Shown here: in pieces, positions 2,595-63,386 of the stretch | Numbering within the stretch: position 1 is the stretch's first letter | Layout: each line of letters begins with the position of its first letter | Assembly (NCBI GenBank): GCA_964399675.1 | Contig: CAYNRK010000003.1 | Coordinates: forward strand, 9,033-73,032 | Length of the DNA stretch: 64,000 bases | Reading direction: 5' to 3' | DNA from: an uncultured Gammaproteobacteria bacterium | GTDB taxonomy: Bacteria > Patescibacteriota > Patescibacteriia > UBA9934 > GWF2-40-263 | Position numbers and translations under genes: made by a program | The notes under the pieces: model-generated | What the model was told of the DNA's origin: nothing | What the model saw: only the letters and a program-made list of their open reading frames with translations | Databases searched by the model: none

Positions 2595-2697
2595 TCTCTT
2601 CTGTTCATTGCATAATCTAACTCTGACTTTTGTTGAAGGTGGCCTCACTTCGCTCACTAGGTGAGCTTTGAGGGGCCGCTTTTAACAAAGGCTACTC

Positions 2698-3579
2698 ATG
2701 ACAACCCGAGTTTCTCGGGCCGTGAACGCCGGCGGTTTCAAGGAGGGCTACTCCATTATGGAACGCCTTATCGAGATCAGACATACCGAACTCCACCCAA
2801 CCCTTCGCGCTCTCTCGAGTGCGGGTGTGACCGTCGATGACGCAACTTGGCTCCGTCGGGACGGCAATGCCGCACTGGTCGAAGCCTTCATTCGAAGGAC
2901 ACGCGATCAGTACCCCTTCAAGCAGAGTATCCGAGAACAGCTCGCTGCTCTGCATGAGCAGAACAATGCTGGTAACTGGGGTATCCCAATGGAGACGTTC
3001 TCTTACCTCGTCGCTAGAGCTCCGAAATGGCCCAAGGGTCGCGACGCGTATCGCTCGTTCCGCATCCGCTTTGGCGAGGGGGTCAAAGGTGTGGCCAAGA
3101 CCTTTGAAGCGCACGCTGCAGCCATGAAGCGTGTCTTCGGTAACAGGTTCTGGCGCTGGGATTCTCTTCTGTCCGGCAAGACCCCACACCAACGCAAGGG
3201 TGGCGAGGATGTGGAGCGTTTGCGTTTGCTCAACGGCAACGATACTCATCGTCCTACAGTCCAGTGGGTCATCATTCCGGATCTGTCGGTCCATCGCCAG
3301 CGTGAGGACATCACGTCCGTACGTAACCCTCTGTCCCTGGCGGACGAAGGGCTTGTGCTTGCGTGGCTCAACCCCAAGCGTGCCGAGGCTGTTGACTACG
3401 AGGAGTGGCCGGCCTGGTTCTGTGCTGGTTACGAGCTCAACGTTCCCGAGCACGACGAAGAGCCATGGCAGAGCGTGGTGGTCGTGGGTCGCAGCGGGGG
3501 CGATAGCGAGGCAAGTCTGAGCGCCTACTTGCGCAACGATTCCAACCCGAGCTGCTCGGTGCCTTGTCTCAAGAGGTAG
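2698..3579 (+). CDS. hypothetical protein encoded in a high-GC (~60%) island; probable horizontally acquired gene
   Basis: 293-aa ORF with balanced, protein-like composition. The fully overlapping antisense ORF 2692..3615 is Arg/Leu/Val-rich and typical of GC-rich antisense noise. A structured GC-rich 5' leader hairpin (gctcac-tag-gtgagc) lies at 2655-2669. Confidence 0.5.
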   Translation: MTTRVSRAVNAGGFKEGYSIMERLIEIRHTELHPTLRALSSAGVTVDDATWLRRDGNAALVEAFIRRTRDQYPFKQSIREQLAALHEQNNAGNWGIPMETFSYLVARAPKWPKGRDAYRSFRIRFGEGVKGVAKTFEAHAAAMKRVFGNRFWRWDSLLSGKTPHQRKGGEDVERLRLLNGNDTHRPTVQWVIIPDLSVHRQREDITSVRNPLSLADEGLVLAWLNPKRAEAVDYEEWPAWFCAGYELNVPEHDEEPWQSVVVVGRSGGDSEASLSAYLRNDSNPSCSVPCLKR

Positions 3580-3714
3580 TACCGAACTTGCCGCATCTGA
3601 GATTCGATCCAACAACGGGTCGCTCTCTTGGGTGCGGCTTTTCTATTGTTTTTGAGGCGATTCAAACTCCTTGACAAGAAGGCTTGTTTTAGGCAAGATA
3701 TTGGCGAATTCGAA

Positions 3715-3756: not shown

Positions 3757-3897
3757 CCTGTGTCATTGCGAGTCCGGCAGAGTCGGGCAAGTCCCTGCAT
3801 CCTGTGTCATTGCGAGGCCTAAAAGGCCGAAGCAATCCTCGTATAACGAAGATTGCCGCGTCGCCCCGTCTGACGGGGCTCCTCGCAATGACACAGG
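3757..3897. repeat. nested palindromic repeat element (family GTCATTGCGAG / CTCGCAATGAC), two tandem 5' arms plus internal hairpins
   Basis: cctgtgtcattgcgag occurs at 3757 and 3801. Its exact reverse complement cctcgcaatgacacagg is at 3881-3897. Internal modules are gaagcaatcctcgtataacgaagattgc and gccccgtctgacggggc. Confidence 0.85.
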
Positions 3898-3930
3898 ACG
3901 CGAGATGCAAAGCAACGACAAAAACAAAAT

Positions 3931-6319: not shown

Positions 6320-6411
6320 GCGTCATTGCGAGGGAGCGAAGCGACCGAAGCAACCCCCGTGTACGGAGATTGCTTCGTCGGCCCGTCGGACGGACCTCCT
6401 CGCAACGACGC
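6320..6411. repeat. nested palindromic repeat element (same family) in the prfB 5' leader
   Basis: gcgtcattgcgaggg at 6320 and cctcctcgcaacgacgc at 6396-6411 form the inverted ends. Internal module is gaagcaacccccgtgtacggagattgcttc. It ends 10 nt before the prfB ATG. Confidence 0.85.
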
Positions 6412-6421
6412 ATTGAAAGAT

Positions 6422-7553
6422 ATGAAAGAACTTCTTAATCAGATTCAAGGCCTCCGAGCGCGCGCAGAGCGTACTTGGAGGTATCTTTGACCTTGATACA
6501 GTTGAAACAGAAATAAAGGTTTTTGAAAAAGAAATGGAAGCTACTGATTTTTGGAAAGATCAGGAGCATGCAAAACGAATTAGCAAACAAGCTGCAGCGC
6601 TTAGGTCTGAGCTTGATATGTGGAAAACATTTTTAGATGATGTTCGTGATCTTGAAAGTTTCACACGTTTAGCGCACGATCAGGATGATGTAATGCTTGA
6701 AGATGATATAAGAGATCAATTTAAGATTCTTGAGAAAAAGTTTTCACGACTGGAGTTTCAAACTCTTTTTTCCAGTGAATATGACGATAATCCTGCGATT
6801 GTTTCAATTCATGCGGGATCAGGCGGAACAGAGGCGCAGGATTGGACGCAAATACTTCTTCGGATGATCAGTCGATTTTGTGAGTCAAAGGATTGGGATG
6901 TGGTAATTTTGGACGAATCGCGTGCTGAAGATGTTGGTCTTAAAAAAGTTACAATTCGTGTTGAAGGACGGTATGCTTATGGATATTTGAAATCCGAAGC
7001 AGGTGTGCATAGATTGGTGCGAATTTCGCCATTTGATGCAGAGAAAATGCGTCACACAACATTTGCGCTTATGGAAGTGATTCCAGAACTTGAGGAAGTG
7101 GAGCTTGAACTTGATGAAAAAGATTTACGGATTGATACGTTTATGGCAAGTGGTCATGGTGGGCAAAGTGTGAACACAACTTATTCTGCAGTGCGGATTG
7201 TGCACGAGCCAACTAAGACTACGGCGACTTGTCAAAATGAACGGTCTCAACAACAAAACAAGGAAACAGCGCTTAAGGTTTTGAAATCAAAACTGTTTCA
7301 ATTACAAAAAAAAGAACAAGAGGAAGAGAAAAAGAAACTGCGAGGAGATTATGCAGCTGCTGAGTGGGGAAATCAGATTCGTTCGTATGTACTTCATCCA
7401 TACAAAATGGTAAAAGATCATAGGACAAATTATGAAACCCAGGATACAGAGGCAGTGCTTGACGGGGAGCTTGAGCCGTTTATGGAAGCTTATTTAAGAA
7501 CGCAATTAGAAAACTCAGATCGATTTGAAAAAGCTAACAAAGACGACGATTAA
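6422..7553 (+). CDS. prfB: peptide chain release factor 2 with programmed +1 ribosomal frameshift (ORF1 6422..6490 stops at TGA; shift at CTT-TGA-C, continuing at 6489)
   Basis: ORF1 MKELLNQIQGLRARAERTWRYL* ends in AGGAGGTATCTTTGAC, matching the E. coli RF2 frameshift cassette (SD-like + CUU UGA C). The +1 frame continues DLDTVETEIKVF...ASGHGGQSVNTTYSAVRIVHEPT with the GGQ motif. Confidence 0.9.
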
Positions 7554-20412: not shown

Positions 20413-20486
20413 ATGAAGTTTTTTGTTTCAATTAGAAAACCCGGTTGCCGAAGCTACCGGGAGTGAAGAGGTTGCAGCGGCCGAAG

Positions 20487-21131
20487 CTACTGCTTGGTGA
20501 GCGTGCCTTCCGAGACGTTGCCGTTGGAGGCCTCGAGCTTGTAGGTGATCAAGGACAGGTCGTCCGAAATCGTGCCTTCGAGCGTGACCCCCGGCTTCTC
20601 GCCGTAGAACGCGGCGCCGGTCACATGGACCATGACGTTGAGTCCCATGTTCATGAAGACCCTGTCACCGTCGAGACCGGTCTCGACTGCGCGCACGCTG
20701 TCGTTCGAGCTGTCGACGTACGCGCCGTTCGGAGCCAGGCCCCAGGAGCCTTCCTCGGTCCAGTTGAGCTCCACGACTGTTCCGTTGTCGTCGGCGTTGG
20801 GCACGTACTCGCGCGGGGCAAACAGGTGGATCGGGCTCTCGAGCTCGATCTCGACCTGGTCGTCGATCTTGACGACCTTGACCTCGCAGGTGTCGGTTGC
20901 CTCGCAGGCAACGTCTCCCTTGACCAGGAAGTCACCGACGATGCCCGCTGGGGCGTTGGCGTTGAGGGTGACCGTGAAGAGCGGCTCGCCCGTGTCCGGG
21001 TTGATGCCGTCCTGTCGGGCCTGCTCGTCGTGTCGAGCAGCCTCGTCGGCCTCGCTGTTGTCGAGATCCGCACCACACCCCAGAGCCAGGCAAAGGGGCA
21101 GCAGTGCGATGAGAAGAGTTCGCTTGTTCAT
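20487..21131 (-). CDS. lipoprotein (signal peptide + lipobox LALGCG), high-GC island gene
   Basis: MNKRTLLIALLPLCLALGCGADLDNSEADE...; RBS GGAG 7 nt upstream of the ATG at 21131. The three other ORFs overlapping this interval look like GC-rich frame noise. Confidence 0.6.
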   Translation of the reverse strand: MNKRTLLIALLPLCLALGCGADLDNSEADEAARHDEQARQDGINPDTGEPLFTVTLNANAPAGIVGDFLVKGDVACEATDTCEVKVVKIDDQVEIELESPIHLFAPREYVPNADDNGTVVELNWTEEGSWGLAPNGAYVDSSNDSVRAVETGLDGDRVFMNMGLNVMVHVTGAAFYGEKPGVTLEGTISDDLSLITYKLEASNGNVSEGTLTKQ

Positions 21132-21453
21132 CGCTTTACTCCGGTTTCTGCCCCGTTTCCTACTCCAGCCTTGTGCTGAAAGCAGGGCGCGGGTAAACAC
21201 ACTTCTGTATATATTACAAGGGTTTTTTTAAATTTTGTCAAGTCTAAATATGGGATCTTTGCGAATTTTAGGTAAATCGTAAAGAATTTTGTGGATATTC
21301 TCTGGATAAAATTTCAAACAAATTTTTTAAAAACAATCAAGCTTTCATTTAAAATTTTTCTTGGCTCTGATATATTGACATTAGGCGAGAAACGTGATAA
21401 AAAATCGCCTCGTTCCTTTCAACAAACAACCTACAGGAACGGAAGGGAGTAGT

Positions 21454-22398
21454 ATGAAAAACTTGCTGTGCCTCGCGCTTATGGCGCTCGCCCTGATTTG
21501 GGGTAGCACAGCGAGTGCTACCTGCAAGTCATCCACCATCATCGAGGAGCTCGCAGAAGCCGAAAGCAAAGGCGAGACGGCTTTTGCAGACATGGATCTG
21601 GACGGTCTGCGTGCTCAGGCAAAGAAAGCTCGTGAGATCCTCGCGTGTCTTTCCGAGCCGGTCAATTCAAAGCACGCGGCTGCGTTCCATCGTCTGATGG
21701 CACTCGAAGCGTTCACACATCAGAACGACGATCGTGTGATCGCTGAGTTTCACGCAGCTCGTAAGCTCGATCCCGGCTACCAGTTCCCAGAGGATGTGGC
21801 TGGTGAAGACCATCCGGTTCGCGAGCTCTACAAACGAGCCGCAACAGCCGAAGACGGTGAGCTGCAAACGGTCTACCCACCCAAGGGTGGGTACGCAACC
21901 GTTGGTGGTGTGCGTGGTGCTCCGCGTCCGGAAAAGACGCCGGTCATCATCCAGGTCTTTACCAAGCGTGGAAAGATCAAGGGGACGCACTACATCGAGT
22001 CAGGCAAGTCGCTTGGCAAACTCGGTAAGCCTCCGGTCAAGCTTGTGGCCAAGGTCATCCCACCTTTGCCACCGGAAGGCTGGGCAAAGCCGAATCGTTG
22101 GTACTACACTGCAGCAGCTTCGGCTGCTCTGGCTGGAGTTCTCTACGCTGCGGCACTTCAGCAGAAGTCGGAATTCGAAGACACAAGCGGGACTGACACT
22201 GCGTCGTCCGACAAGGACCTTGCAGGCTACAAGTCGCGCGCAAACGGATTGGGCTACGCTTCTGTAGCTCTTGGCAGCTTGGGTGTCATTGCCACTGGCA
22301 TTGGCTTTACCTTGCAGCTCAACTTCAGCGGAGACGAGAAGGCCACAAAGGTCTCGTTCACCCCAAGCATGGGCAGGGGGTTTGCCAATGTTCGATGA
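21454..22398 (+). CDS. secreted protein (signal peptide MKNLLCLALMALALIWGSTASA), high-GC island gene
   Basis: RBS GGGAGT precedes the ATG at 21454. AT-rich promoter-like TTGACA at 21377. C-terminal TM-like segment. The stop overlaps the start of the downstream kinase gene (ATGTTCGATGA). Confidence 0.6.
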   Translation: MKNLLCLALMALALIWGSTASATCKSSTIIEELAEAESKGETAFADMDLDGLRAQAKKAREILACLSEPVNSKHAAAFHRLMALEAFTHQNDDRVIAEFHAARKLDPGYQFPEDVAGEDHPVRELYKRAATAEDGELQTVYPPKGGYATVGGVRGAPRPEKTPVIIQVFTKRGKIKGTHYIESGKSLGKLGKPPVKLVAKVIPPLPPEGWAKPNRWYYTAAASAALAGVLYAAALQQKSEFEDTSGTDTASSDKDLAGYKSRANGLGYASVALGSLGVIATGIGFTLQLNFSGDEKATKVSFTPSMGRGFANVR

Positions 22399-24265
22399 TC
22401 CAGAAGTCCTGATGGGCATGATCCGAGCTCATGGTCGCTTTGAGCCGATCAAGATGGTTGGCGAAGGCGGAATGGGTACCGTGGTCAAGGTTCGCGATCC
22501 TCGCCTGAGGGCAATTCGTGCCATGAAGGTGATCAATCCGGACATGGCTGATCACGATCTGGTCAAGCGTCGGTTTGAGGCTGAGGCAGCCTTGACCGAC
22601 AAGGTGACACATCCCAATATCGTGCGCGTGTACGACATTGGTGAGCTCACACATCCTGACACCGGGATCGAGTTCTTGTACATTGTCATCGAATGGGTCG
22701 ATGGTGGTTCGCTTGCGGATCACATCGAGGCGTTTGGGGCAATGCCGGAACAACAGGCTCTTGCGGTCACGATCGCGATCCTGAATGGGCTCGGGTGTGC
22801 GCACGAAGCCGGTGTTATTCATCGCGACATCAAGCCGGACAACATCCTGCTTACTTCAGGGGAGGTCTCCAAGATCGCGGACTTTGGCATTGCTCAAGGT
22901 CAGGACGCTACTCACAAAACCCGGTCTGGTATCGCACTAGGAACCATTGGGTTCATGCCTCCTGAGCAGATGATCGACGCAGCTTCTGTGGACGCTCGCG
23001 CTGATCTCTACGCCGTAGGGATGACTCTGTGGAACATGCTTAGCGGCAAAAGGCCGCCGAGCGATAATCTGGTCTGGTATCTCAATTTCCTGAGCGAAGC
23101 TTGGGTCATGGAGGGAATCGATCACCAGCTGGTTGCAGTCCTCAAAAGGGCCTGTGCAGAAAAGCCGGCGGGTCGATACCAGAGCTGTGCAGAGCTTGTC
23201 CAGGTTCTCACACAAGCGCTTGGCTCGTTCGGCGCACTCAGTCAAGGCACCCCTCTTCTGGGCAGCATGCCTGAGATGGTGGTCGAGGCAACCGGCCTTG
23301 TTCCAGGTGTGGCCAGGATGGTGGCTGCAATCGATGCGGTTGATGACGACCTGCCGTTTGAGCCACCTGCTGGTTCGGTCAGGCTTCAGCCTTCAGGGGG
23401 ACAGGTCGACGCCACTGTTCGGAATCCTGCCACTGAGATAGCTGGATCCCCACCTCTTCTTGTCAGCAGCACACCTCCACCGAGCGTGAGTTCTCAGCCT
23501 AGTGTGCGCGCAGCAACAGATCCGCACAGGGATCTTGCGTACGCACACACCCACGTGGCTTCAGCAGACAGCGTGCCCAGCACTGGAACGCTTGCAGAAG
23601 CTGCTGGTGAGACCATTCGCAATGGTGACCTCGATGTGCCAGGCTCTGTCACCAAGGGGCGACGTTCAGCCGGAATCCTGGCTGTGGCAGCGCTTGCGCT
23701 GCTTGGTGGCCTGGCTTCGCTCGCGGTCTTCGGTATTCCGCGGCTCACCAGCGAGTCACCTGGACATGCTGCTACTCAGACTGATCCGCAGGTGACTCAG
23801 CCAACCGCGCCGGTTGCTCGTGCAGTCATCACACCACAGCCGGCAACACCTCTCGAAGAGGTGCCAAAGCCTGAGCGTCCATCAGTTGCATCTGGGTACG
23901 GTGCAAAGGTGGCGAGTGGCAAAGCACCAGAGATCAGTGTGGGGCCAAAGGAAGAGGTTCCCAAGCCTGCTTCAAAGGCAAAGAAGAAGGCCAGGAAGAA
24001 GCGCAAGAAGCGCAAAAAGGCCAAGGCAGCTGTTGAGGCAAAGGTCCGTGTTGGACTCAAGCTTCCAGCAAATGACCCGGCCAAGGTCTGGTTGGTTGGC
24101 AAAGCTGGTACGTCCAAGTTGCCGGCCAAGGTGCCTCCTGGCACTTACAAGGTCAAGGCCAAGTTCAAGGATCGGCCACCCAAGGTGGTCATCTCCTCAT
24201 ACACGGTTCAGGCCGGCAGCACGCCGCGCCTGAAGTGCTCATCCTCGTTTGCACGCTGCAAGTGA
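22388..24265 (+). CDS. Hanks-type Ser/Thr protein kinase with Pro-rich linker, single TM helix and Lys-rich C-terminal tail
   Basis: Gly-loop VGEGGMGTVVKV, catalytic HRDIKPDNILL, DFG (KIADFGIAQ). TM segment AGILAVAALALLGGLASLAVFG; KKKARKKRKKRKKAK tail. GC about 60%. Confidence 0.85.
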   Translation: MFDDPEVLMGMIRAHGRFEPIKMVGEGGMGTVVKVRDPRLRAIRAMKVINPDMADHDLVKRRFEAEAALTDKVTHPNIVRVYDIGELTHPDTGIEFLYIVIEWVDGGSLADHIEAFGAMPEQQALAVTIAILNGLGCAHEAGVIHRDIKPDNILLTSGEVSKIADFGIAQGQDATHKTRSGIALGTIGFMPPEQMIDAASVDARADLYAVGMTLWNMLSGKRPPSDNLVWYLNFLSEAWVMEGIDHQLVAVLKRACAEKPAGRYQSCAELVQVLTQALGSFGALSQGTPLLGSMPEMVVEATGLVPGVARMVAAIDAVDDDLPFEPPAGSVRLQPSGGQVDATVRNPATEIAGSPPLLVSSTPPPSVSSQPSVRAATDPHRDLAYAHTHVASADSVPSTGTLAEAAGETIRNGDLDVPGSVTKGRRSAGILAVAALALLGGLASLAVFGIPRLTSESPGHAATQTDPQVTQPTAPVARAVITPQPATPLEEVPKPERPSVASGYGAKVASGKAPEISVGPKEEVPKPASKAKKKARKKRKKRKKAKAAVEAKVRVGLKLPANDPAKVWLVGKAGTSKLPAKVPPGTYKVKAKFKDRPPKVVISSYTVQAGSTPRLKCSSSFARCK

Positions 24266-26136: not shown

Positions 26137-28125
26137 ATGAACACGCTCAGAATTCGGTTTTTCTTTTACTTCCTCTGTGCTCAGGCCTTCTTGGCGTTTG
26201 TGATGATCATGATGGCCTGCACAGAGTCGGTGGATGTCTCCTCAAGAGAGCATTCATTCGAAGGTGGTGGTGTCTACAGGACAACGATCCATCTTCCCGG
26301 TTCGCCAGCAGTGGAGCTTCAGTGCGTGCAAGGTGTTGGCGGTTCCTACTCGCACACTTCTCGATCGACCTACTACGATATCGATCTTGACACCTCGAAC
26401 ATCCGTGATGAGAGCGTGTACGCGCCGGCTGATGGGATCGCTTTCGTTCATATGCACAACTCGCATATGAACTTTGGAAAGCATGTGAACATTGACCTGG
26501 GCGATGGCACGTACGTGGTGATTGCGCACATGTCAAAGATCGTGGTCTCTGACAACGCTGAAGTGGCAACCGGACAGCTACTAGGGCTTGAAGGATGCAC
26601 TGGATCCTGCACAGGCGATCACATTCATGTCGGTCTTCACAGAGGGAATGCGGCTCAACCTGCGCAGTATGGTGAGTCTGTTCCTGTTCGATACCATGTA
26701 GCGGATAACACAGAGCCGCGCGGACACAAGCCGCTTGATGTTGAAGAGACGGTCTGTGGTCTCCGAGCATTCGGAGACAACCAAAACGGGCAGTTCTATA
26801 CCTCTGCACTTGACGTAACGCTTTTCCATCCAAACGGCACGCTTGTGAAGACGTCAAACAACGCACGTGTGTATCTCATTGACAACGGTCAATTGCGACA
26901 CATTGCAAACGAACGAACGTTTCACTCATACGGCTACAGTTTCATGGACGTTGCCATCATTTCAGATGAAGAACGCTCATGTTACCCCGAGGGTCCCGTG
27001 CTTGACCTTGTGGGTATGGTGGATGCTGTTACGGATGACAACGATCAGATTTGGCTACTGGTTGGTCCAAGGCAAAGGAGCGACCGGTATCGTATCCGCG
27101 TCAGAAACGAAGCGTTTGAGCAGGTGCTTGAGTCCTGGGGAGTCAACGTTGGTCTTCAAGGACCTCGACAGGTTCGCTCAAATGCACGCGAGCTTGCTCA
27201 GTGGCCTGTGAGATCCGGAACAGCTCGATTCCGAGATGGAAGTCTTGTCAGAGAGCAAGATCGTTCGGATGTCTATCTGATCTCAGACTCTGTTGCGCTT
27301 CCGATTGCGAACTGGCAGACGTATCTGCGTCTTGGGTTTTACGATCGACAAGTGCTCATGGTTGGAAACGGTGAGCTAGCACAGGTTCAGCGAGCAGCTG
27401 GCAATTGCCTGGTGGGCAGCAACTGCTTGGACGGATACAACATCAGTGTGTGCGGAAACGACTTGAGGCTGGATCTCAGGCATGAGTCAGACACCAGCGG
27501 CGATCTACAAGTTGCTGGATTTCGTGAAAACGAAAACGAGGAACACAATGGCGAAAAAGAAGAGCAAGAAGGTGATGGGGAGAGTGAGGAGGAGGTGGTT
27601 GCAGGTACCACTCTGGACGAAAGCGAGGATGAAGAACGTGAGATTGAAGCAGGTGTAACTCCTCTTTGCAACGGCCAGGACGCATGCCTACACGACAACG
27701 ACGGTGATGACAAGGCCGAGTTCCTTCTGATGCGAAATCATCAGTGGTTGAATCCGGACTTGCACGATGAGTTCGCGGTTGTTTACGGCAACGGAGGTTG
27801 CTTTAACAATCGTTTCGAGCCAGGTGACGTTTTCTATCCAAGAGACGGTTACTACTGGATCGATTTCACTGTCTTTGACAGACCGTGCAGCAGTGAGCTC
27901 ACACTCATCTCTGTGGTCGGCACTGACGGCGAAGATCCACGTCCTTCAATGGACAACTGGTACTGGTGGCAGAATGCACCGTTCTGTTCGCAAGGCTCCA
28001 TGCTTTGCAATCTCATGAACAACGGTGTGCCATGGGAAGAGTGGTTGGTTTCGGTTGCCTGGCATCCGGATCAAGGCCTCTTGCCAAACGGCAACGGCTT
28101 CACACGAAATACTCAGCTTCACTGA
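26137..28125 (+). CDS. secreted M23-family (LytM-like) peptidoglycan metalloendopeptidase, high-GC gene with acidic E/D-rich region
   Basis: Signal peptide. HxxxD (SHTSRSTYYDIDLD) and HxH (GDHIHVGLH) zinc-site motifs typical of M23. RBS AGGAGAGAGG. GC about 55%, against about 38% in flanking genes. Confidence 0.7.
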   Translation: MNTLRIRFFFYFLCAQAFLAFVMIMMACTESVDVSSREHSFEGGGVYRTTIHLPGSPAVELQCVQGVGGSYSHTSRSTYYDIDLDTSNIRDESVYAPADGIAFVHMHNSHMNFGKHVNIDLGDGTYVVIAHMSKIVVSDNAEVATGQLLGLEGCTGSCTGDHIHVGLHRGNAAQPAQYGESVPVRYHVADNTEPRGHKPLDVEETVCGLRAFGDNQNGQFYTSALDVTLFHPNGTLVKTSNNARVYLIDNGQLRHIANERTFHSYGYSFMDVAIISDEERSCYPEGPVLDLVGMVDAVTDDNDQIWLLVGPRQRSDRYRIRVRNEAFEQVLESWGVNVGLQGPRQVRSNARELAQWPVRSGTARFRDGSLVREQDRSDVYLISDSVALPIANWQTYLRLGFYDRQVLMVGNGELAQVQRAAGNCLVGSNCLDGYNISVCGNDLRLDLRHESDTSGDLQVAGFRENENEEHNGEKEEQEGDGESEEEVVAGTTLDESEDEEREIEAGVTPLCNGQDACLHDNDGDDKAEFLLMRNHQWLNPDLHDEFAVVYGNGGCFNNRFEPGDVFYPRDGYYWIDFTVFDRPCSSELTLISVVGTDGEDPRPSMDNWYWWQNAPFCSQGSMLCNLMNNGVPWEEWLVSVAWHPDQGLLPNGNGFTRNTQLH

Positions 28126-51321: not shown

Positions 51322-51340
51322 ACGTCATTGCTCTTCCTTT

Positions 51341-51519
51341 GTGTCTCGCACACTGCGTCGTTGCGAGCCCCCTTTCGTGAAAAGGGGCGAAGCAATCTCC
51401 GTATAGAATTATGGGGGACAGTCACGTTGTATATAATTTCGGCAGTACTCACTTTGTTCCGTGCTGGCGAAATTATATACAACGTACCTGTTGTGGAGAT
51501 CCTGATGGTTCGTCGGAGG
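51341..51519. repeat. composite palindromic repeat cluster in the clpC upstream/5' leader region (modules A-H-G-B-M3)
   Basis: gtgtctcgcacactgcgtcgttgcgagc + cccctttcgtgaaaagggg + cgaagcaatctccgtatagaatt + 22-bp inverted repeat acgttgtatataatttcggcag...ctggcgaaattatatacaacgt + gttgtggagatcctg + ggttcgtcggagg. Confidence 0.85.
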
Positions 51520-51529
51520 ATTAATGGTG

Positions 51530-54418: not shown

Positions 54419-55621
54419 GTGTATATGTCTATTGATACTGACCCAAAGAAAATTGAAGAATTATTAACGCGGGGGGTGGAGAATGTTTACCCGTCGAGGA
54501 AGTTTTTGGAAGATGCGTTAAAGAGTGGCAAACAGCTATCACTTTATGTTGGCATTGATCCAACCGGAGCTGATCTTCACATTGGTCACAGTATTTTTCT
54601 TAAAAAGATGAAACAGTTTCAAGATTTGGGTCACAAGATTATTATGTTGATTGGAGACTTTACTGGAATGATTGGGGATCCAACGGATAAGTCGGCGACC
54701 CGTGTGCGATTGACTCGCGAGCAGGTTCTTGAGAATTCAAAGACTTACAAAAAACAAGCAAGTAAAATTATTGATTTTAAGGGAAAAAATGCAGCGGAGA
54801 TTAAACATAACAGTGAGTGGTTATCGAAGTTGACATTGGCAGAGCTTATTGATATTGGGTCGCATTTTACGATTCAACAGATGCTTGCCCGCGACATGTT
54901 CCGTCGAAGACTCAAAGAAGATAAGGAAATAGGATGGCATGAATTCGTCTATCCAATCATGCAAGGTTACGATTGCGTTGCAATGGATGTTGATGGCGAG
55001 CTTGGTGGGAATGATCAGATGTTTAACATGCTTGCCGGTCGGACGCTTATGAAAGCAATTAAGAATAAGGAAAAGTTTGTGCTCACAACAAAGTTGCTTA
55101 TTGATCCAACTGGAAAGAAAATGGGTAAGTCAGAAGGGAACATGATTCGGTTGAATGATTCAGCTGACGAGATGTTTGGAAAAGTAATGAGCTGGCCGGA
55201 TGAGTTGATTCTTAGTGGGTTTGAACTTGTAACAGATGTTGCAATGGATGAAATTAAATCAATTGAAAAAGAAATGAAAAAAGGTGCGAACCCGCGGGAC
55301 ATAAAGGCACGACTTGCCAGGGAAGTGGTTACGGGATTTTATAATGAAAAAGATGCGCAAGCAGCTTCTGATCGGTTTGATCAACAATTTAAAGAAGGAG
55401 ATAAGCCAGAGGAGATTCCAGAATTCAAAATTAAAAAAGACATGACAATTATTGATGTACTTGTGGGGTCAGGGCTTGCCAAATCAAAGTCAGAAGCAAG
55501 AAGACTTATTGATGGAAAAGGAGTGAAAGTAGACGATAAGGTTGTTGAAGATTATGAACACAAAGTTGATTCAAATCAGGTTGTTCAAAAAGGAAAGAGG
55601 CATTTTATTAAATTGATTTAA
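54419..55621 (+). CDS. tyrS: tyrosyl-tRNA synthetase (with C-terminal S4 domain)
   Basis: HIGH motif (DLHIGHSIF), KMSKS (KMGKSEGN); 400 aa. The ATG at 54425 is the likely start (ORF track begins at the GTG at 54419). Confidence 0.92.
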   Translation: MYMSIDTDPKKIEELLTRGVENVYPSRKFLEDALKSGKQLSLYVGIDPTGADLHIGHSIFLKKMKQFQDLGHKIIMLIGDFTGMIGDPTDKSATRVRLTREQVLENSKTYKKQASKIIDFKGKNAAEIKHNSEWLSKLTLAELIDIGSHFTIQQMLARDMFRRRLKEDKEIGWHEFVYPIMQGYDCVAMDVDGELGGNDQMFNMLAGRTLMKAIKNKEKFVLTTKLLIDPTGKKMGKSEGNMIRLNDSADEMFGKVMSWPDELILSGFELVTDVAMDEIKSIEKEMKKGANPRDIKARLAREVVTGFYNEKDAQAASDRFDQQFKEGDKPEEIPEFKIKKDMTIIDVLVGSGLAKSKSEARRLIDGKGVKVDDKVVEDYEHKVDSNQVVQKGKRHFIKLI

Positions 55622-55623
55622 TA

Positions 55624-55687
55624 CTAACAATTCGCCACTAAGTGGCGAATTGTTAGTGGAAAACGCGTCACAGAGCGCGTTTTTTTG
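55624..55687 (+). terminator. tandem rho-independent terminators after tyrS
   Basis: ctaacaattcgccact-aagt-ggcgaattgttag, then aacgcg-tcacagag-cgcgtTTTTTTG. Confidence 0.7.
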
Positions 55688-55734
55688 TTTATCAAAATTG
55701 GTACAAAAACAAATTCAATCTGTGTGAATGAGGG

Positions 55735-55763
55735 TTGACAAAATCGTTGTTTTGTGGTAGTAT
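55735..55763 (+). promoter_or_regulatory. strong sigma70-like promoter TTGACA-17nt-TAGTAT driving the candidate sRNA
   Basis: ttgacaaaatcgttgttttgtggtagtat, read directly. Confidence 0.6.
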
Positions 55764-55769
55764 TTCACC

Positions 55770-56003
55770 GTTGGCTTCGGCTGACCCTTGTTGTTGGATG
55801 GCCCCAGGTTTACCCAAAACCTGGCGCATTGCGGGCAACCGTGATCCACAACTTGGTTTTTCCTATACTACCTACTTGTCCGTGCAACTTCCTGGCTCCT
55901 TGCCGCAAGCGTTCCGTGCTCTACCCACGAGCCGCAACGCAACTAAAAAGCGGCCCTACTACTCCCCCATTGACTAGTAAAGTTGATGGGGGCACTTTTT
56001 TTA
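55770..56003 (+). ncRNA. candidate structured small RNA (~230 nt) bounded by promoter and terminator; identity unknown
   Basis: GC-enriched (~50%) relative to the surroundings. Internal hairpins (ccaggttt-accc-aaacctgg etc.). Ends with cccccattgac-tagtaa-agttgatggggg + TTTTTTT. No convincing ORF; the ORF-track 55754..56323 reading frame is low complexity. Confidence 0.45.
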
Positions 56004-56020: not shown

Positions 56021-57604
56021 TTAACTAAACAACCAGTTTTCATCATGCAATCCAACTGCTTTGAACTGGTCAGTCATTTTTTTCTTGTCATCATCACCCT
56101 GCATGAAATCCAAATAGCATTCCTTAAACGCTCTTTGCATCACTGTCTTTGGATCAGATTGGGCTGTTGTTTGTTTCTTGGTTTTTGCATTTCTAAGTCG
56201 CTTTGCATCAAGGAAATCCATAAGAGCCAACAAGTTGTCTCTTGTAAACACATAAGGTTCTGGCCTTCCTTTTCCAATGGTTTTGTCGTGAGCCATTTTT
56301 TCTATTTGTGCATGGAATTTTGAAAGGGCAATAATCATTTCTTTAAATCTTGGAATGCGTTTAAGAAGTTTATATGTTGGGTCTGCATCATCTCCTTGAT
56401 ATTCTTGTCCGTCAATATTAACTTTTGGTTGAGTTCCAAAAGCAGCAAAGTTCATCATTGCCTCATAACTTTTTTCATCCGGTCTTTCCACAAAAAGATA
56501 ACCAGTCCAACGGCGTTTTTCAGCAGGAGTAAGAGGTTCGCGGCCAGCATATGATGATGGGTTTGATGCTCCAAAGACGCGGAAATCTGGATGCATTTCA
56601 TGATCAGCCCCTTCACCAACAGACTCTCCTTTATTTTCTGAAAGAACAAGCCATGGTTTTCGTTCAAGCGCAGAGTTCATTCGCTCACGAACAGAAGCTT
56701 CACTAAGCATGAGCTCGTCACAAAGAAGCCATGCACCTGTTTTCATTGCTCTTGGTAACATCCCATCTTGCCATCGCCACTCAGGAACCTGGATTCCTTC
56801 TTCTGAAGCAACCATTTGGGATTCTGTAAGAGACAGTTCACGTTGTTCACCTGCTGCAGTATTAATAATAGCTTGTGATTTTGCTGACAAGTTTTCAACG
56901 TGCATTAAAAGTTTTTCAAATTCTAATTGAACTTGCCCATCGTTTGGTACAAATTTTCCAATAAGCTCGGATGTATCTGTTTGTCCTGAAAAATTTAAGC
57001 GCAATAGTTCATGATTTGTGATTGCTGCTAAATATTCAATTGGGCTTGTTTTTGCAACTCCGGTTTCTCCTTCCAACAACAGAGGCTTTTTCAGATCAAC
57101 AGCTGTTGCGATTTTGTGAAGAGTTTTCAGTGTGTGTTCGTCCAAAGTAAAGTGTTCAAACTTTTTCATTGATGGAACCATTGGTCCGCCATCTGGGTTG
57201 TATGGAATTTCAGTGTCAAGAACATAAACAACACCTTCGGCTTTATTAATTTCAATTGGAAGTGGAGTTTCTCGTTTTTTTTCAACTGCCATTGGAACAC
57301 CTTCTTCTTTTAGTGGTTTGACAAATAATTTTCCTTTGCGTTCACCCGGTTTGGTATCAATGGTTACTTGTACATCATAAGGAACACCAGGGGTTGGTTC
57401 AAAATTATAATCTGGATCTGGGAGTAAAATTTTGTGCTCAGGAGTACCTGAAACAAAAAATTCAGTAGTTGCTTTTCCTCTGCGTCTTGACCTTCTTTCC
57501 CTACTTTCAAAAACAACACCTGTAAGCACATTTCCAACAGTTGCTTCTCTGCGTTCTGTGGATCCTGTGCCAGGCTCTCGGTCTGGTCTTTCTGGGTCAA
57601 CCAT
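56021..57604 (-). CDS. MoxR/AAA_5-family AAA+ ATPase with ~170-aa N-terminal extension
   Basis: Walker A LLLEGETGVAKTS; Walker B LLCDELMLSEA (DE-I/L-N-x-A type); 527 aa. Last gene of a three-gene minus-strand operon. Confidence 0.7.
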   Translation of the reverse strand: MVDPERPDREPGTGSTERREATVGNVLTGVVFESRERRSRRRGKATTEFFVSGTPEHKILLPDPDYNFEPTPGVPYDVQVTIDTKPGERKGKLFVKPLKEEGVPMAVEKKRETPLPIEINKAEGVVYVLDTEIPYNPDGGPMVPSMKKFEHFTLDEHTLKTLHKIATAVDLKKPLLLEGETGVAKTSPIEYLAAITNHELLRLNFSGQTDTSELIGKFVPNDGQVQLEFEKLLMHVENLSAKSQAIINTAAGEQRELSLTESQMVASEEGIQVPEWRWQDGMLPRAMKTGAWLLCDELMLSEASVRERMNSALERKPWLVLSENKGESVGEGADHEMHPDFRVFGASNPSSYAGREPLTPAEKRRWTGYLFVERPDEKSYEAMMNFAAFGTQPKVNIDGQEYQGDDADPTYKLLKRIPRFKEMIIALSKFHAQIEKMAHDKTIGKGRPEPYVFTRDNLLALMDFLDAKRLRNAKTKKQTTAQSDPKTVMQRAFKECYLDFMQGDDDKKKMTDQFKAVGLHDENWLFS

Positions 57605-57607
57605 ATA

Positions 57608-58051
57608 TTATTCAAGTCTTAAAATTGATGAAATAAGGGGTTGTAGCTGAATATCAGTTGGTTCAACATTAACAAGTAAAATAAGAAGCAGCGCTCCTTT
57701 TGGAAGAGGGTTTATTATAGTTGGCTCTTCATGTCCTGCAAGATGTACGTTCAAATGTCCTTCTTTAATGTTATGTAATTGACTGAGAATTTTTCCAGGC
57801 AATTGGCTTGTGATTACAAGTGCAGTAGCTTGGGCTTTCTCAAGCCTGCGAGCAAGAACTTCAAGCAGTTCATCAGGATGTTGGTCATCTTTGATTTCAA
57901 GCAAACTTGCACCAGTAGTAATTAGCAAGGCTTTTACAGCTTCTTTGTGTTCGTTTGGTGTGATAATTGTTCCAAACGCAAATCCTTCACCACGTTTCAT
58001 GGTAAGGCCATCTAAATAGTCTTTTAGATATTCTTTTTGTTCTTCATTCAT
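57608..58051 (-). CDS. hypothetical 147-aa protein between the VWA and AAA+ genes
   Basis: ORF tightly spaced: 6 nt to the upstream gene, 3 nt to the downstream gene. Confidence 0.45.
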   Translation of the reverse strand: MNEEQKEYLKDYLDGLTMKRGEGFAFGTIITPNEHKEAVKALLITTGASLLEIKDDQHPDELLEVLARRLEKAQATALVITSQLPGKILSQLHNIKEGHLNVHLAGHEEPTIINPLPKGALLLILLVNVEPTDIQLQPLISSILRLE

Positions 58052-58057
58052 AGTTTT

Positions 58058-60340
58058 TTACCAATCGCTTTCATCATACCATGGGTCATCATCTTCGTCT
58101 CTTTCCTTTCTTTCGCTTCTTTTTCTTTCGAGTTCTGGTTTATTGGCTTCAAGCATAGCTTGAAATGATTCTGGTGAGATGATCATGCCTTGCACAATTT
58201 TACCCAATTGTTCTGCCAGGTCTTTTACTGAAAGGTTTGGAAATGCAACAGGATAATAATCTTCTACATGCTCTGTTCCTGAGCCAAGTCCAAGTCCGGC
58301 GAGTTTCTGATTGGTTTCAGTAGTTATGGTTTCAACTGCATCATCTAAATCTTCTGCTGTACTATGTCTTCCCGCAGGTTGTCCGTCTGAAAGAACTGTA
58401 AGGAATTTATGCTTTGCAACTTGTTTTTTCAAACGCTTTGACGCTTCAAGAAGACAAGGGCCATCATCATTATATCCTGATTGATTGTGCCCACCAGGAT
58501 TTTCACTATTGACTTCTTTTAACATTCCTGCCATTCTGTTTCTTATTTCATCTGTTAGTTCTTCATCAAAATTTTTAAAAGGTATGATTTCATCTTGGAA
58601 ACCAAGGATTTCACATTTGATACCAAGTCGACTTAATACTTCTGCAAGTATAATTACCCCCTTGAATGTTTCTCCAATTGTTCCTGGGTCATCATCATAA
58701 CCGGCCATTGACCCAGACAGATCAACTAAAATTGTAAAGGCAAAATCATTAACTTTTGGGATGTCTTTTGATTCCCAAAATTTTGCCGGCAAATCTTTGG
58801 CCCCGGCTGCTCTTGCTGCAATAAAATTGAAAAGCGCGCGAATGTTTGGTTTTGTACCAGAGCTTTTAAGTGTTGTCTTTTTCTTACGCTGCGGGTAAAA
58901 AACTTGATATAGTTCGCGGTGTAGTTGATCTTCAAATTCTCTGACTTGCTCGTAATTCTCATCGTAAACGCTTTTTTGATCAAGAGCCGCTTGTTCTTCT
59001 TCAATCAGTTCGCGCAATGCTTCTGCGTCTGCTTCATCTTGTGCGCGCTGTTTTGCCTCTGCTTTTGCGCTTGCTTGTTTGGCATCCTTGTCTGCAACTG
59101 CAGCATGAGTTGGAAGAGGACTATCTTCCATTGCTCCTTCAAACAATTTTGTAATAATGTCTTCAATTTTTTCAAGCGCCTTTTTAATAAGTTTTTCAAT
59201 CTTTTCTCTTTGTTCTTTTTCCAGCTCATCAAATATTTCTAATAGCTTTTCTTCAAGCTCTTCTGAAAAAGTATCAGCAGGTACAGGAAGTTTGTTGTAG
59301 CCACCAACAATATCTGCAAAAGTATCAATTTGATCAAGCATTACACTTGAGGTATTTGGTTTGTCATCTATAAGACTAAGTTCTTCGTTGGTTTTTTGTG
59401 CATGGCCTTCTGCCTTTTTTCGAATAACAGGATACAGTTTGTGCAAAAGTTCATAGAAAAGTTCCAGTGGCAACTCAGTAAGCCGATCTCTTTCCTCTCC
59501 TGTACGATCTTCAACAGGTGTTCTATCAATTGTTCTGGATTGTTCAATAAGAAAAAGACTTACTTGTCTGAGTCTTTCGGTTTTCATGTCTTGTTCTGCA
59601 AGTTCTTTAACATGCGGAAAAATTTCTTTGTAAGTAGCTTTGTAACGTTCTTTTGCCAGCGCGATCTTTTTTTCATCATCGTCCTTTGTGTTTGGAATCT
59701 CACGTTCTATTCTTTCAACAGTAGTTCGAATTGCTTCATAATGTTCAAGTGCAATAGAACTTTTTGCATTCCGTTGTTCTTCAATGTAATGCGGATCATG
59801 AACAATTATTCCGTCTAATTGAGCAAAGTGCGGCACATAACCAAGAAGATCTAGCGCGCTTCCTTCTAGTTCGCCTTCTCTTGCAAGCGTTCGTCGCATT
59901 TGATCAACCCAAAGCCCTGCTCCAGCAAACCTATCTCTTACAACCTGATCTGTTGGACGTTCTTCAACAGCTCGTAAAAGAGAAACTAATCCAAGTTCTT
60001 TGGCTGCTTCTTCAGGGAAAAAAGAAAAGTCTGTAATAAGAGCATGACCGGCTTCGTGTGCAATGCTTCCCAAAAGCACTCCTTCTTCTTCGGTTCCAGC
60101 ACGTTCCAGAACCTCTTCTGGGTCAAAGAAAATTTCACGTGTTGAAGTATCGATGTACCATAATTTATCTCCGCCCTTTCCTTGTTTAACAACAACACCT
60201 TTTTCACCGGAAATAGTTTGCGCAAGTGCCTGGAGCCGACCTTGCCAACTTCGAAGAGTTGCTTTTTCTTCATCAGTAAATACACGCGGCTCAGAAGCCT
60301 CGCCAATTCTGTCTCTTGTTTCAGTGCTTGTTGGTGTCAT
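58058..60340 (-). CDS. VWA-domain protein with N-terminal HExxH (zincin-like, DUF2201_N-type) region and long coiled-coil linker
   Basis: N-terminal SIAHEAGHALI (HExxH). C-terminal VWA/MIDAS motif ILVDLSGSM...(DxSxS)...SDGQP. 760 aa; E/K-rich middle. Confidence 0.7.
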   Translation of the reverse strand: MTPTSTETRDRIGEASEPRVFTDEEKATLRSWQGRLQALAQTISGEKGVVVKQGKGGDKLWYIDTSTREIFFDPEEVLERAGTEEEGVLLGSIAHEAGHALITDFSFFPEEAAKELGLVSLLRAVEERPTDQVVRDRFAGAGLWVDQMRRTLAREGELEGSALDLLGYVPHFAQLDGIIVHDPHYIEEQRNAKSSIALEHYEAIRTTVERIEREIPNTKDDDEKKIALAKERYKATYKEIFPHVKELAEQDMKTERLRQVSLFLIEQSRTIDRTPVEDRTGEERDRLTELPLELFYELLHKLYPVIRKKAEGHAQKTNEELSLIDDKPNTSSVMLDQIDTFADIVGGYNKLPVPADTFSEELEEKLLEIFDELEKEQREKIEKLIKKALEKIEDIITKLFEGAMEDSPLPTHAAVADKDAKQASAKAEAKQRAQDEADAEALRELIEEEQAALDQKSVYDENYEQVREFEDQLHRELYQVFYPQRKKKTTLKSSGTKPNIRALFNFIAARAAGAKDLPAKFWESKDIPKVNDFAFTILVDLSGSMAGYDDDPGTIGETFKGVIILAEVLSRLGIKCEILGFQDEIIPFKNFDEELTDEIRNRMAGMLKEVNSENPGGHNQSGYNDDGPCLLEASKRLKKQVAKHKFLTVLSDGQPAGRHSTAEDLDDAVETITTETNQKLAGLGLGSGTEHVEDYYPVAFPNLSVKDLAEQLGKIVQGMIISPESFQAMLEANKPELERKRSERKERDEDDDPWYDESDW

Positions 60341-61502: not shown

Positions 61503-61508
61503 CCACAA

Positions 61509-61537
61509 GTCTGCCCGCACCTGAGCTGCGGGCAGAC
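61509..61537 (+). terminator. hairpin gtctgcccgca-cctgagc-tgcgggcagac immediately after rseP (terminator candidate; no U-tract)
   Basis: Perfect 11-bp stem, read directly. Confidence 0.45.
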
Positions 61538-61539
61538 CA

Positions 61540-61978
61540 CACCCTGCGTCGTTGCGAGGCCTGTTAGACGGGTCGAAGCAATTTCCGTGTCTCGCACACT
61601 GCGTCGTTGCGAGCCCCCTTTCGTGAAACGGGGCGAAGCCCGTCCGAACGGCCGCAAGGCCGGGCGGGCAATCTCCGTAAAGAATTCCCTCGTGTCCTGC
61701 ACCTTGTGTCATTGCGAGCGAAGCGAAGCAATCTTCGTAAAGAATTATGGGGGACAGTCACGTTGTATATAATTTCGGCAGTACTCACTATCGTTCCGTG
61801 CTGGCGAAATTATATACAACGTACCTGTTGTGGAGATGCTGGGGGTTCGTCGGAGAATTGCGTAGGACAGTCACGTTTTGTCATCTCGACCGAGGCGCTA
61901 GCCGAGCGGAGAGATCCCGAATATCAGAGATCCCTCGGCTTCGGCCCGTCGGACGGGCCTTCGCTCGAGATGACACAA
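61540..61978. repeat. large composite palindromic repeat cluster (~440 bp; at least 3 tandem A-type units + B unit + C-type unit) filling the rseP-pheS intergenic region
   Basis: ctgcgtcgttgcgaggc..., gtgtctcgcacactgcgtcgttgcgagccccctttcgtgaaacgggg..., tgtcattgcgagcgaagcgaagcaatcttcgtaaagaatt, B-unit 22-bp inverted repeat, ggttcgtcggaga, then the C-type unit tgtcatctcgaccgagg...cgctcgagatgaca. Confidence 0.9.
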
Positions 61979-62000
61979 TAATACGGAGGATTATGTATAT

Positions 62001-63056: not shown

Positions 63057-63057
63057 C

Positions 63058-63368
63058 ATTGTCATCTCGACCGAGGTTCCTGCCGAGCGGAGAGATCTCG
63101 AAGATTGCTTCGTAGAGGATTTTGGGTGACAGTCACGTTGTATATAATTTCGGCAGTACTCGCGTGGCTCCGTGCTGGCGAAATTATATACAACGTACCT
63201 GTTGTGGAGATCCTGAATGTTCGTTGGAGGATTGTGAAAGGCTTTTGGGATCATGCCATTTCCCCGCGTCGTTGCGAGCCCCCTACGTGAAAAGGGGCGA
63301 AGCAATCTCCGTAGAGAATTATATACAACGTACCTGTTGTGGAGATGCTGGGGGTTCGTCGGAGGTTT
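63058..63368. repeat. composite palindromic repeat cluster (C-unit, B-unit, A/H-unit, partial B/M3) between pheS and pheT
   Basis: attgtcatctcgaccgagg...gagatctcgaagattgcttcgta; gacagtcacgttgtatataatttcggcag...ctggcgaaattatatacaacgt; gcgtcgttgcgagccccctacgtgaaaagggg; ...ggttcgtcggagg. Confidence 0.9.
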
Positions 63369-63386
63369 AAAAAAAGTAAAAGCGAT

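Follow-up and report, generated by a model that had tools for sequence, protein, structure and literature searches.

The 64-kb stretch of contig CAYNRK010000003.1 analysed here (the window, scanned on both strands) belongs to an uncultivated bacterium whose TyrS has its nearest named relatives, at ~70% identity, in Candidatus Uhrbacteria (Patescibacteria). The region under study, positions 55735-56003 of the forward (+) strand, had been picked out in an earlier note on the same DNA as a stand-alone candidate small RNA (sRNA) gene. Its flanking genes are convergent, as that note had said: tyrS ends at 55621, and an AAA+ gene on the minus strand ends at 56021. The latter encodes a MoxR-type AAA_5 ATPase and lies in an operon with genes for a VWA protein and a conserved small protein, p147. 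The analysis indicates that the region is very probably a genuine non-coding RNA gene. It stands alone as a transcription unit, with a promoter and a terminator of its own, but probably not in function, since the RNA seems to go with the AAA_5/VWA operon next to it.

Promoter, transcript and terminator

The region opens with a sigma-70 type promoter (55735-55763), in which a -35 hexamer TTGACA (55735-55740) is separated by a 17-nt spacer ending in TGG from a -10 hexamer TAGTAT (55758-55763), just as previously described; it agrees with the consensus at 10 of 12 positions and carries a TG (55755-55756) directly 5' of the -10. A perfect TTGACA combined with TAnnnT at a spacing of 16-18 occurs at only two sites in the window, and this is the sole TG-extended site of the two. 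The predicted transcript of ~230 nt (55770-56003) would start ~7 nt past the -10 and end in the U-tract of an intrinsic terminator (55964-56002) that consists of a 12-bp stem (55964-55992, six G-C pairs), a 5-nt loop and seven T residues (55996-56002), in agreement with the terminal hairpin and U7 noted before. Only 18 nt separate the end of this terminator from the AAA_5 stop codon. The GC enrichment over the flanks was likewise found: the transcript is C-rich (G 0.22, C 0.31) and 53% GC with 34-42% around it, the GC fraction being 0.475-0.54 across 55700-55999 against 0.335-0.42 in the flanks. The two terminators assigned to tyrS stood up in part, since the hairpin at 55658-55685 has a U-tract and the perfect stem at ~55626-55654 has none. 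With its own promoter, its own intrinsic terminator and no coding frame, the region has the generic anatomy of a bacterial sRNA gene, from which we infer transcription and predict that expression is most likely strong and constitutive.

Coding potential and known RNA families

The view that the unit contains no credible open reading frame (ORF) was tested against the possibility that it encodes a small protein, either in a 59-amino acid (aa) ATG frame (55800-55977) or in an 80-aa TTG frame beginning at 55735. Such an open frame covers most of the unit and has its stop in the terminator loop, but chance open frames are expected at 53% GC, and this one has no ribosome-binding motif. The 80-aa frame has no homologues among 5.8 billion clustered proteins, nor any detectable by HMMER among 1.84 billion representative proteins, and in none of six independent contigs of this organism do gene finders call a gene between tyrS and AAA_5. 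Codon scores of all six frames range from -0.25 to +0.09, like off-frame sequence, whereas real genes score 0.33 ± 0.15; the long frame scores -0.11, inside the off-frame distribution, and its GC content at the three codon positions (0.58/0.53/0.56) shows no periodicity. A protein product is therefore highly improbable.

Searches with Rfam 15 at gathering thresholds recognise three tRNAs in the whole window and nothing else, and no match is found on the + strand within 55770-56003 even at E <= 10; thus the RNA, which the earlier note could not match by eye to 6S, SRP, tmRNA or RNase P RNA, has no Infernal/Rfam match to them either. At E <= 0.1-0.5, the operon-linked units of eight related loci (see below) match no family. 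The window RNA resembles 6S, SRP, tmRNA and RNase P RNA in being a GC-rich, structured, independent unit in an AT-rich genome, but it possesses neither the closing 5'/3' helix nor the central bubble of the 6S type, and whereas housekeeping RNAs are conserved across relatives, its sequence is not.

Predicted structure of the RNA

The + strand folds with a minimum free energy (MFE) of -78.1 kcal/mol (z = -3.1; none of 200 shuffles is as good), or with z = -1.9 when the terminator is excluded (8 of 200 shuffles as good), compared with z = -0.4 for the opposite strand. The several internal hairpins claimed for the region are borne out by MFE and centroid structures, which contain a 5' UUCG hairpin, a GNRA hairpin and two hairpins, here called motif hairpins, whose loops recur in other genomes. 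The 5'-terminal hairpin (55770-55785), GUUGGC-UUCG-GCUGAC with a C(UUCG)G tetraloop, is evident both in the MFE structure and by direct reading of the sequence. It is followed by a three-way junction (55790-55852; closing helix 55790-55797/55846-55852) present in centroid and MFE structures, inside which motif hairpin 1 (55804-55824; ccagguu-UACCCAA-aaccugg, in the MFE structure) lies alongside the GNRA hairpin (55829-55844), a G(GCAA)C with GCAA at 55835-55838. The UUCG and GCAA tetraloops exist on the promoter strand only. A pyrimidine-rich linker (55853-55901; UUGGUUUUUCCUAUACUACCUACUUGUCCGUGCAACUUCCUGGCUCCUU), unpaired in the centroid and partly paired in MFE structures, leads to a 3' domain (55902-55954) predicted by both methods, in which nested helices GCCGC/GCGGC and GCGUU/AACGC surround motif hairpin 2 (55918-55932; gcuc-UACCCAC-gagc, in the MFE structure).

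Sequence conservation

The RNA region is 100% identical in six same-species contigs from different samples, so that no within-species covariation signal can be obtained. Neither nhmmer nor sensitive blastn detects a similar sequence in 80 loci of related GTDB species centred on tyrS, which makes the window RNA an orphan by overall sequence, and in local alignments of the syntenic tyrS gaps the promoter is the sole match. A by-eye alignment of its 3' module with those of two relatives (L007 and L088) had no statistical support and was not used. An exact match to GGTACCCATTCC at 22469-22480 is considered a coincidence: it is part of a Ser/Thr kinase gene and codes there for GMGT.

Association of non-coding units with VWA-p147-AAA_5 operons

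In relatives that lack the operon, tyrS is followed directly by the M50 protease-pheS-pheT genes (with a 43-nt gap in L092) or by other genes. In contrast, all five genomes with the operon at tyrS (the window, L007, L087, L088 and L089) have one to three non-coding units in the gap, and those of the four relatives occupy the same gap in the same orientation as the window RNA, each with a TTGACA/extended -10 promoter and an intrinsic terminator. The units of L007, L088 and L087 (three units) have the sequence GGUACCCAYUCC in common. L007 and L088 are close relatives with near-identical tyrS ends and promoters, whose RNA units (4548-4800 in L007; 3981-3790, minus strand, in L088) are strongly diverged in their 5' halves and conserved in their 3' parts; the 5' halves hold tiny Cys-rich frames, such as MACVCCCTI after GGAGG. 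In L089, an ORF-poor stretch of ~650 nt (~6480-7130) between tyrS and the RNA units resembles by eye a decayed transposase gene read in antisense, as would fit an insertion hot spot.

A wider sample of 80 metagenome loci encoding AAA_5 relatives splits into two groups: group 1, in which identity is 39% or more and the genes run VWA-p147-AAA_5, and a distant group, in which it is at most 38% and AAA_5 precedes VWA. Counting identical contigs once, 11 of the 13 group-1 systems have non-coding units of this kind; L089, whose units lack the loop motif described below, is not among them, and L103 is uncertain. Their arrangement varies: in L094, L095, L097, L098 and L100, up to three tandem units lie between p147 and AAA_5 on the opposite strand; in L104, a 100-nt RNA is encoded convergently downstream of AAA_5; and in L107, two units lie downstream in the direction of the operon. 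A promoter of the window type heads units in L007, L088, L087, L100, L097, L104, L095, L094 and L098. The window RNA is itself a non-coding promoter-to-terminator unit directly flanking a VWA-p147-AAA_5 operon.

A hairpin loop shared by the units

Operon-linked units have differing stems that display loops of 7-8 nt with the sequence UAGCCAN or, in the Uhrbacteria clade, UACCCAN. In the non-Uhrbacteria units (3795 nt), 20 copies of UAGCCA stand against 0.87 expected (p = 1e-20); the Uhrbacteria-clade units (3172 nt) have ten copies of UACCCA against 0.56 expected (p = 5e-10), and their opposite strand has none. Neither variant occurs together with the other, and hardly any copies of either lie on the opposite strand. 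Hairpins with an exact 7-nt TAGCCAT loop number ten in 519 kb of AAA_5 loci and zero in 677 kb of control tyrS loci. A single RNA may have from one to six motif hairpins. Among 16 canonical instances, all six stem pairs have changed on both sides, with a covariation score of 0.624 versus 0.16 in shuffles (0 of 500 reach 0.624) and at most 0.114 with slid partner columns, figures that pertain to a motif defined after inspection of the data and to instances chosen partly for stem formation. At the seventh position of the loop, every catalogued instance has U, C or A, and the complements would be AUG, GUG and UUG; however, no start-codon targets for the loop were found, and no operon gene begins with the loop complement.

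Probable membership of the window RNA in the proposed loop class

Two hairpins of the Uhrbacteria-clade type are present on the transcribed strand of the window RNA, a result matched by none of 20,000 dinucleotide shuffles. The control frequency predicts ~0.04 copies of UACCCA, a hexamer defined from the relatives alone, in the 234 nt of the RNA, where two are present. Elsewhere in the window, over 127 kb counting both strands, only one strict 7-nt-loop hairpin exists, at 59292. Two covariance models were built: R1 from the 16 canonical UAGCCAU hairpins, and R2 from canonical and Uhrbacteria-clade instances with the window sequence excluded. R1 scores its members at 19.5-28.6 bits, and its best score in 677 kb of control DNA is 18.3 bits. 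Within the 399-nt gap, R2 identifies hairpin 1 at 12.8 bits (E = 0.0032) and hairpin 2 at 7.2 bits (E = 0.1), both on the promoter strand.

Besides the manner in which the motif was defined, several results weigh against assigning the window RNA to the class and giving it a role in the operon. On a window-wide search, the best R2 hit to the window RNA has E = 0.51 and ranks second. Smith-Waterman comparison with seven other Uhrbacteria-clade units gives z <= 1.8, i.e. no overall homology, and the L089 units lack the loop motif, as do the distant AAA_5-then-VWA systems, which also lack such units. Profile searches with Pfam, NCBIfam and PDB, and a fold search with the ATPase, found no RNA-binding domain in the three operon proteins. 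R1 finds neither the window RNA nor any other Uhrbacteria-clade unit, so that nothing but context and intermediate forms (for instance GGC-UACCCAU-GCC in L087 beside GGC-UAGCCAU-GCC in L094, L097, L098, L100 and L107) ties the C-for-G loop variant to the main family. On the strength of the shared context and these near-identical forms, the Uhrbacteria-clade subgroup can reasonably, if not conclusively, be equated with the canonical UAGCCAU group. The window RNA is likely to be a member of the Uhrbacteria-clade subgroup, and its membership in the operon-associated RNA class as a whole is moderately probable.

Two hairpins antisense to the VWA gene have related loops: 59292-59310 (+), with loop UAGCCAC, and 58194-58211 (+), with loop UUUACCCA. 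With loop lengths relaxed to 6-13 nt, these are the only other + strand UA(G/C)CCA-loop hairpins in the window. With no promoter or terminator nearby, they are probably due to chance.

The neighbouring operon

The AAA_5 ATPase (56021-57604, minus strand; 527 aa, Pfam AAA_5), whose gene is convergent with the RNA gene, is modelled by AlphaFold (pLDDT 89.6) with an all-beta N-domain (approximately residues 26-134) followed by the AAA+ module; in a fold search, its best structural matches are NorQ and CbbQ, and then the AAA modules of dynein and Rea1. The p147 gene (57608-58051, minus strand) encodes a conserved protein of 145-147 aa that belongs to no known family and is always found between the VWA and AAA_5 genes; its single-sequence structure model (pLDDT only 55) is too poor to use. 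The 760-aa VWA protein (58058-60340, minus strand) consists of an N-terminal part with an HExxH motif, an acidic/coiled middle and a C-terminal vWA domain with MIDAS resembling those of CobT, NorD and midasin. Pfam and PDB profiles recognise only CobT_C/VWA domains in it. The HExxH motif (consensus AHEAGH) lies in the N-terminal third and is kept across six orthologues, suggesting a zincin-like metallopeptidase domain missed by Pfam. PADLOC found nothing that would identify the operon as a defence system, and viral contigs have no AAA_5 relatives, which disfavours phage origin.

Some other systems have a far longer AAA_5 protein (1171-1353 aa) or one with an N-terminal array of ~35-residue repeats (in L098 and L096); such variants are encoded at 3821-7336 in L097, 3941-8002 in L100 and ~2745-5692 in L098. 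Systems thus differ greatly in the N-terminal part of the ATPase. Several operon genes in L097, L100, L107 and L089 have a TATAAT box ~7-12 nt before the ATG and no Shine-Dalgarno sequence, suggesting leaderless or near-leaderless mRNAs.

Possible modes of action

Conserved loops on covarying, variable stems, variable copy number and fast divergence of the RNAs point to a recognition site, either for a protein or for another RNA. We propose that non-coding RNAs with genes beside or inside VWA-p147-AAA_5 operons, mainly in Patescibacteria, may form a class not described before, which the window sRNA represents locally. RNAs of this class would evolve fast except for hairpins displaying the conserved 7-8-nt loop, and would use the loops as recognition sites to bind a component of the MoxR/VWA module encoded next to them. 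Candidate binders are p147, the all-beta N-domain of the ATPase and the N-terminal part of the VWA protein, and the RNA could act as a scaffold, substrate or regulator of an ATP-driven remodelling machine. For the combination of a structured sRNA, local membership in the operon-linked loop-RNA class and loops serving as recognition sites, we consider the prospects evenly balanced. Action of the window RNA through binding to module proteins is a more tentative proposal, and because no RNA-binding domain is recognised in the three proteins, the protein-binding step is put forward by inference only. Similarly doubtful is the more specific possibility of an unrecognised ribonucleoprotein (RNP) machine that has the RNA as integral subunit or dedicated substrate; in it, the MoxR ATPase, the MIDAS/HExxH protein and p147 would bind the loops and depend on ATP to remodel the RNA or use it, with tandem, fast-diverging paralogues providing specificity.

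Alternatively, the RNA could be an orphan, lineage-specific sRNA that acts in trans, for example by pairing with mRNAs through its 50-nt linker, in which case it would sit in a variable hot spot next to tyrS and the neighbouring operon would be incidental. Its anatomy (a stable 5' hairpin, an unpaired C/U-rich stretch and an intrinsic terminator) is typical of such regulators, it is species-specific by overall sequence, and the tyrS-M50 junction is variable among relatives, with an IS-like remnant there in L089. However, similar units accompany the operon in unrelated contexts and in three different arrangements, and the loop motif is common to them. Moreover, the best duplex predicted with 43 start regions (-44.4 kcal/mol) is no better than those of shuffled RNA (-42.5 ± 3.9), Shine-Dalgarno motifs are rare, and no motif precedes more than 5 of the 43 genes; we thus regard a trans-acting orphan as rather unlikely. 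The short distance between the RNA terminator and the AAA_5 stop codon would accord with action in cis, the strong promoter firing into the 3' end of the AAA_5 operon and causing transcriptional interference or antisense processing; read-through of the operon across the RNA gene is plausible because the minus-strand hairpin is not followed by a U-run. Yet convergence is not conserved, as the units are upstream and divergent in five lineages and co-directional in one; operon mRNAs show no excess of the loop complement (15 observed vs 17.5 expected in 57 kb of coding sequence from 13 systems); and a cis effect would leave the conserved loop with covarying stems unexplained. This explanation appears unlikely.

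Less probable still, indeed very unlikely, is that the region is non-functional, GC-rich foreign or decayed DNA bracketed by chance by promoter-like and terminator-like sequences. The window does contain several GC-rich, probably acquired segments, and the region has no overall conservation beyond the species; but the brackets are the best promoter in 64 kb and a perfect terminator, the folding signal is strand-specific with the UUCG and GNRA tetraloops confined to the promoter strand, the shuffles yielded no sequence with two motif hairpins, and there is no detectable protein remnant.

Other features of the window

A dispersed repeat family (51322-51529, 61503-62000 and 63057-63386) has a core of ~130 nt that is nearly identical between copies and contains a long inverted repeat (GTTGTATATAATTTCG...CGAAATTATATACAAC). 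The repeats fill the M48/ClpB, M50/pheS and pheS/pheT gaps, which are absent or 0-3 nt long in L092, and look like MITE-like insertions. GC-rich palindromic elements (GTCATTGCGAG...CGAAGCAATC...CTCGCAATGAC) recur intergenically at 3760-3900 and 6320-6412 and also within the repeats at 61.6 kb and 63.3 kb; palindromes of the same type are present in L097 (~2610-2680) and L098 (~2560-2630). The genes at 2692-3615, 20445-24265 and 26137-28125, which include a Hanks-type Ser/Thr kinase-like ORF (22271-24265), have a GC content of 0.52-0.63 in a genome of ~0.39 and were probably acquired horizontally.

Comparison with known systems

An sRNA gene with its own promoter and terminator is a known kind of feature; the operon-linked loop motif is absent from all Rfam families. 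Candidate Phyla Radiation bacteria have small genomes with little room for non-functional DNA, and the RNAs described here, if the proposed class is real, would be among the first operon-linked non-coding RNA classes described for this group. An RNA family that travels with one operon subfamily would give that subfamily a testable client or cofactor, and the short loop, the covarying stems and the compact two-hairpin versions in L104 and L107 lend themselves to direct binding experiments. Should the association be incidental, the result is ordinary: one more orphan sRNA candidate in an uncultivated bacterium.

Y RNAs, which bind the vWA protein Ro60 beside whose gene they are encoded (as in YrlA beside rsr), offer one parallel, as in both cases a small structured RNA gene adjoins the gene of a vWA/MIDAS protein, the RNA evolves fast while keeping a short protein-recognition element, and tandem paralogues may occur. 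However, the Pfam and PDB profile searches found no TROVE domain in the VWA protein, the Rfam models Y_RNA and YrlA match neither the window RNA nor the units of its relatives, and Ro60 systems lack the pairing of a MoxR AAA+ protein with a CobT-like protein bearing an HExxH region; RNA binding in the present system is only predicted. The protein-titrating CsrB/RsmZ RNAs are similar in having many hairpins with variable stems and one short conserved loop sequence, and their own promoter and terminator, but their loops display GGA rather than UA(G/C)CCAN, no CsrA-type partner was identified here, and the gene is tightly linked to one operon instead of being part of a global regulon.

The proteins themselves are most like the MoxR-VWA pairs (NorQ/NorD, CbbQ/CbbO, CobS/CobT, RavA/ViaA), which are widespread ATP-driven remodelling systems, and like midasin (Rea1), which remodels an RNP, the pre-60S particle. 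In fold, the window ATPase comes nearest to NorQ and CbbQ; the vWA domain most resembles CobT, NorD and the midasin MIDAS. Unlike NorQ/NorD-type pairs, the window system adds p147 and the HExxH region. To our knowledge, the clients of MoxR-VWA systems are mostly unknown and the systems are regarded as purely protein machines; we know of no bacterial MoxR-VWA pair with a dedicated RNA gene, and among open-access papers we found none linking MoxR/VWA or CobS/CobT systems to an RNA or an RNA motif. If the proposal is correct, the system encoded here would be a bacterial, RNA-containing counterpart of the MoxR-VWA chaperone systems.

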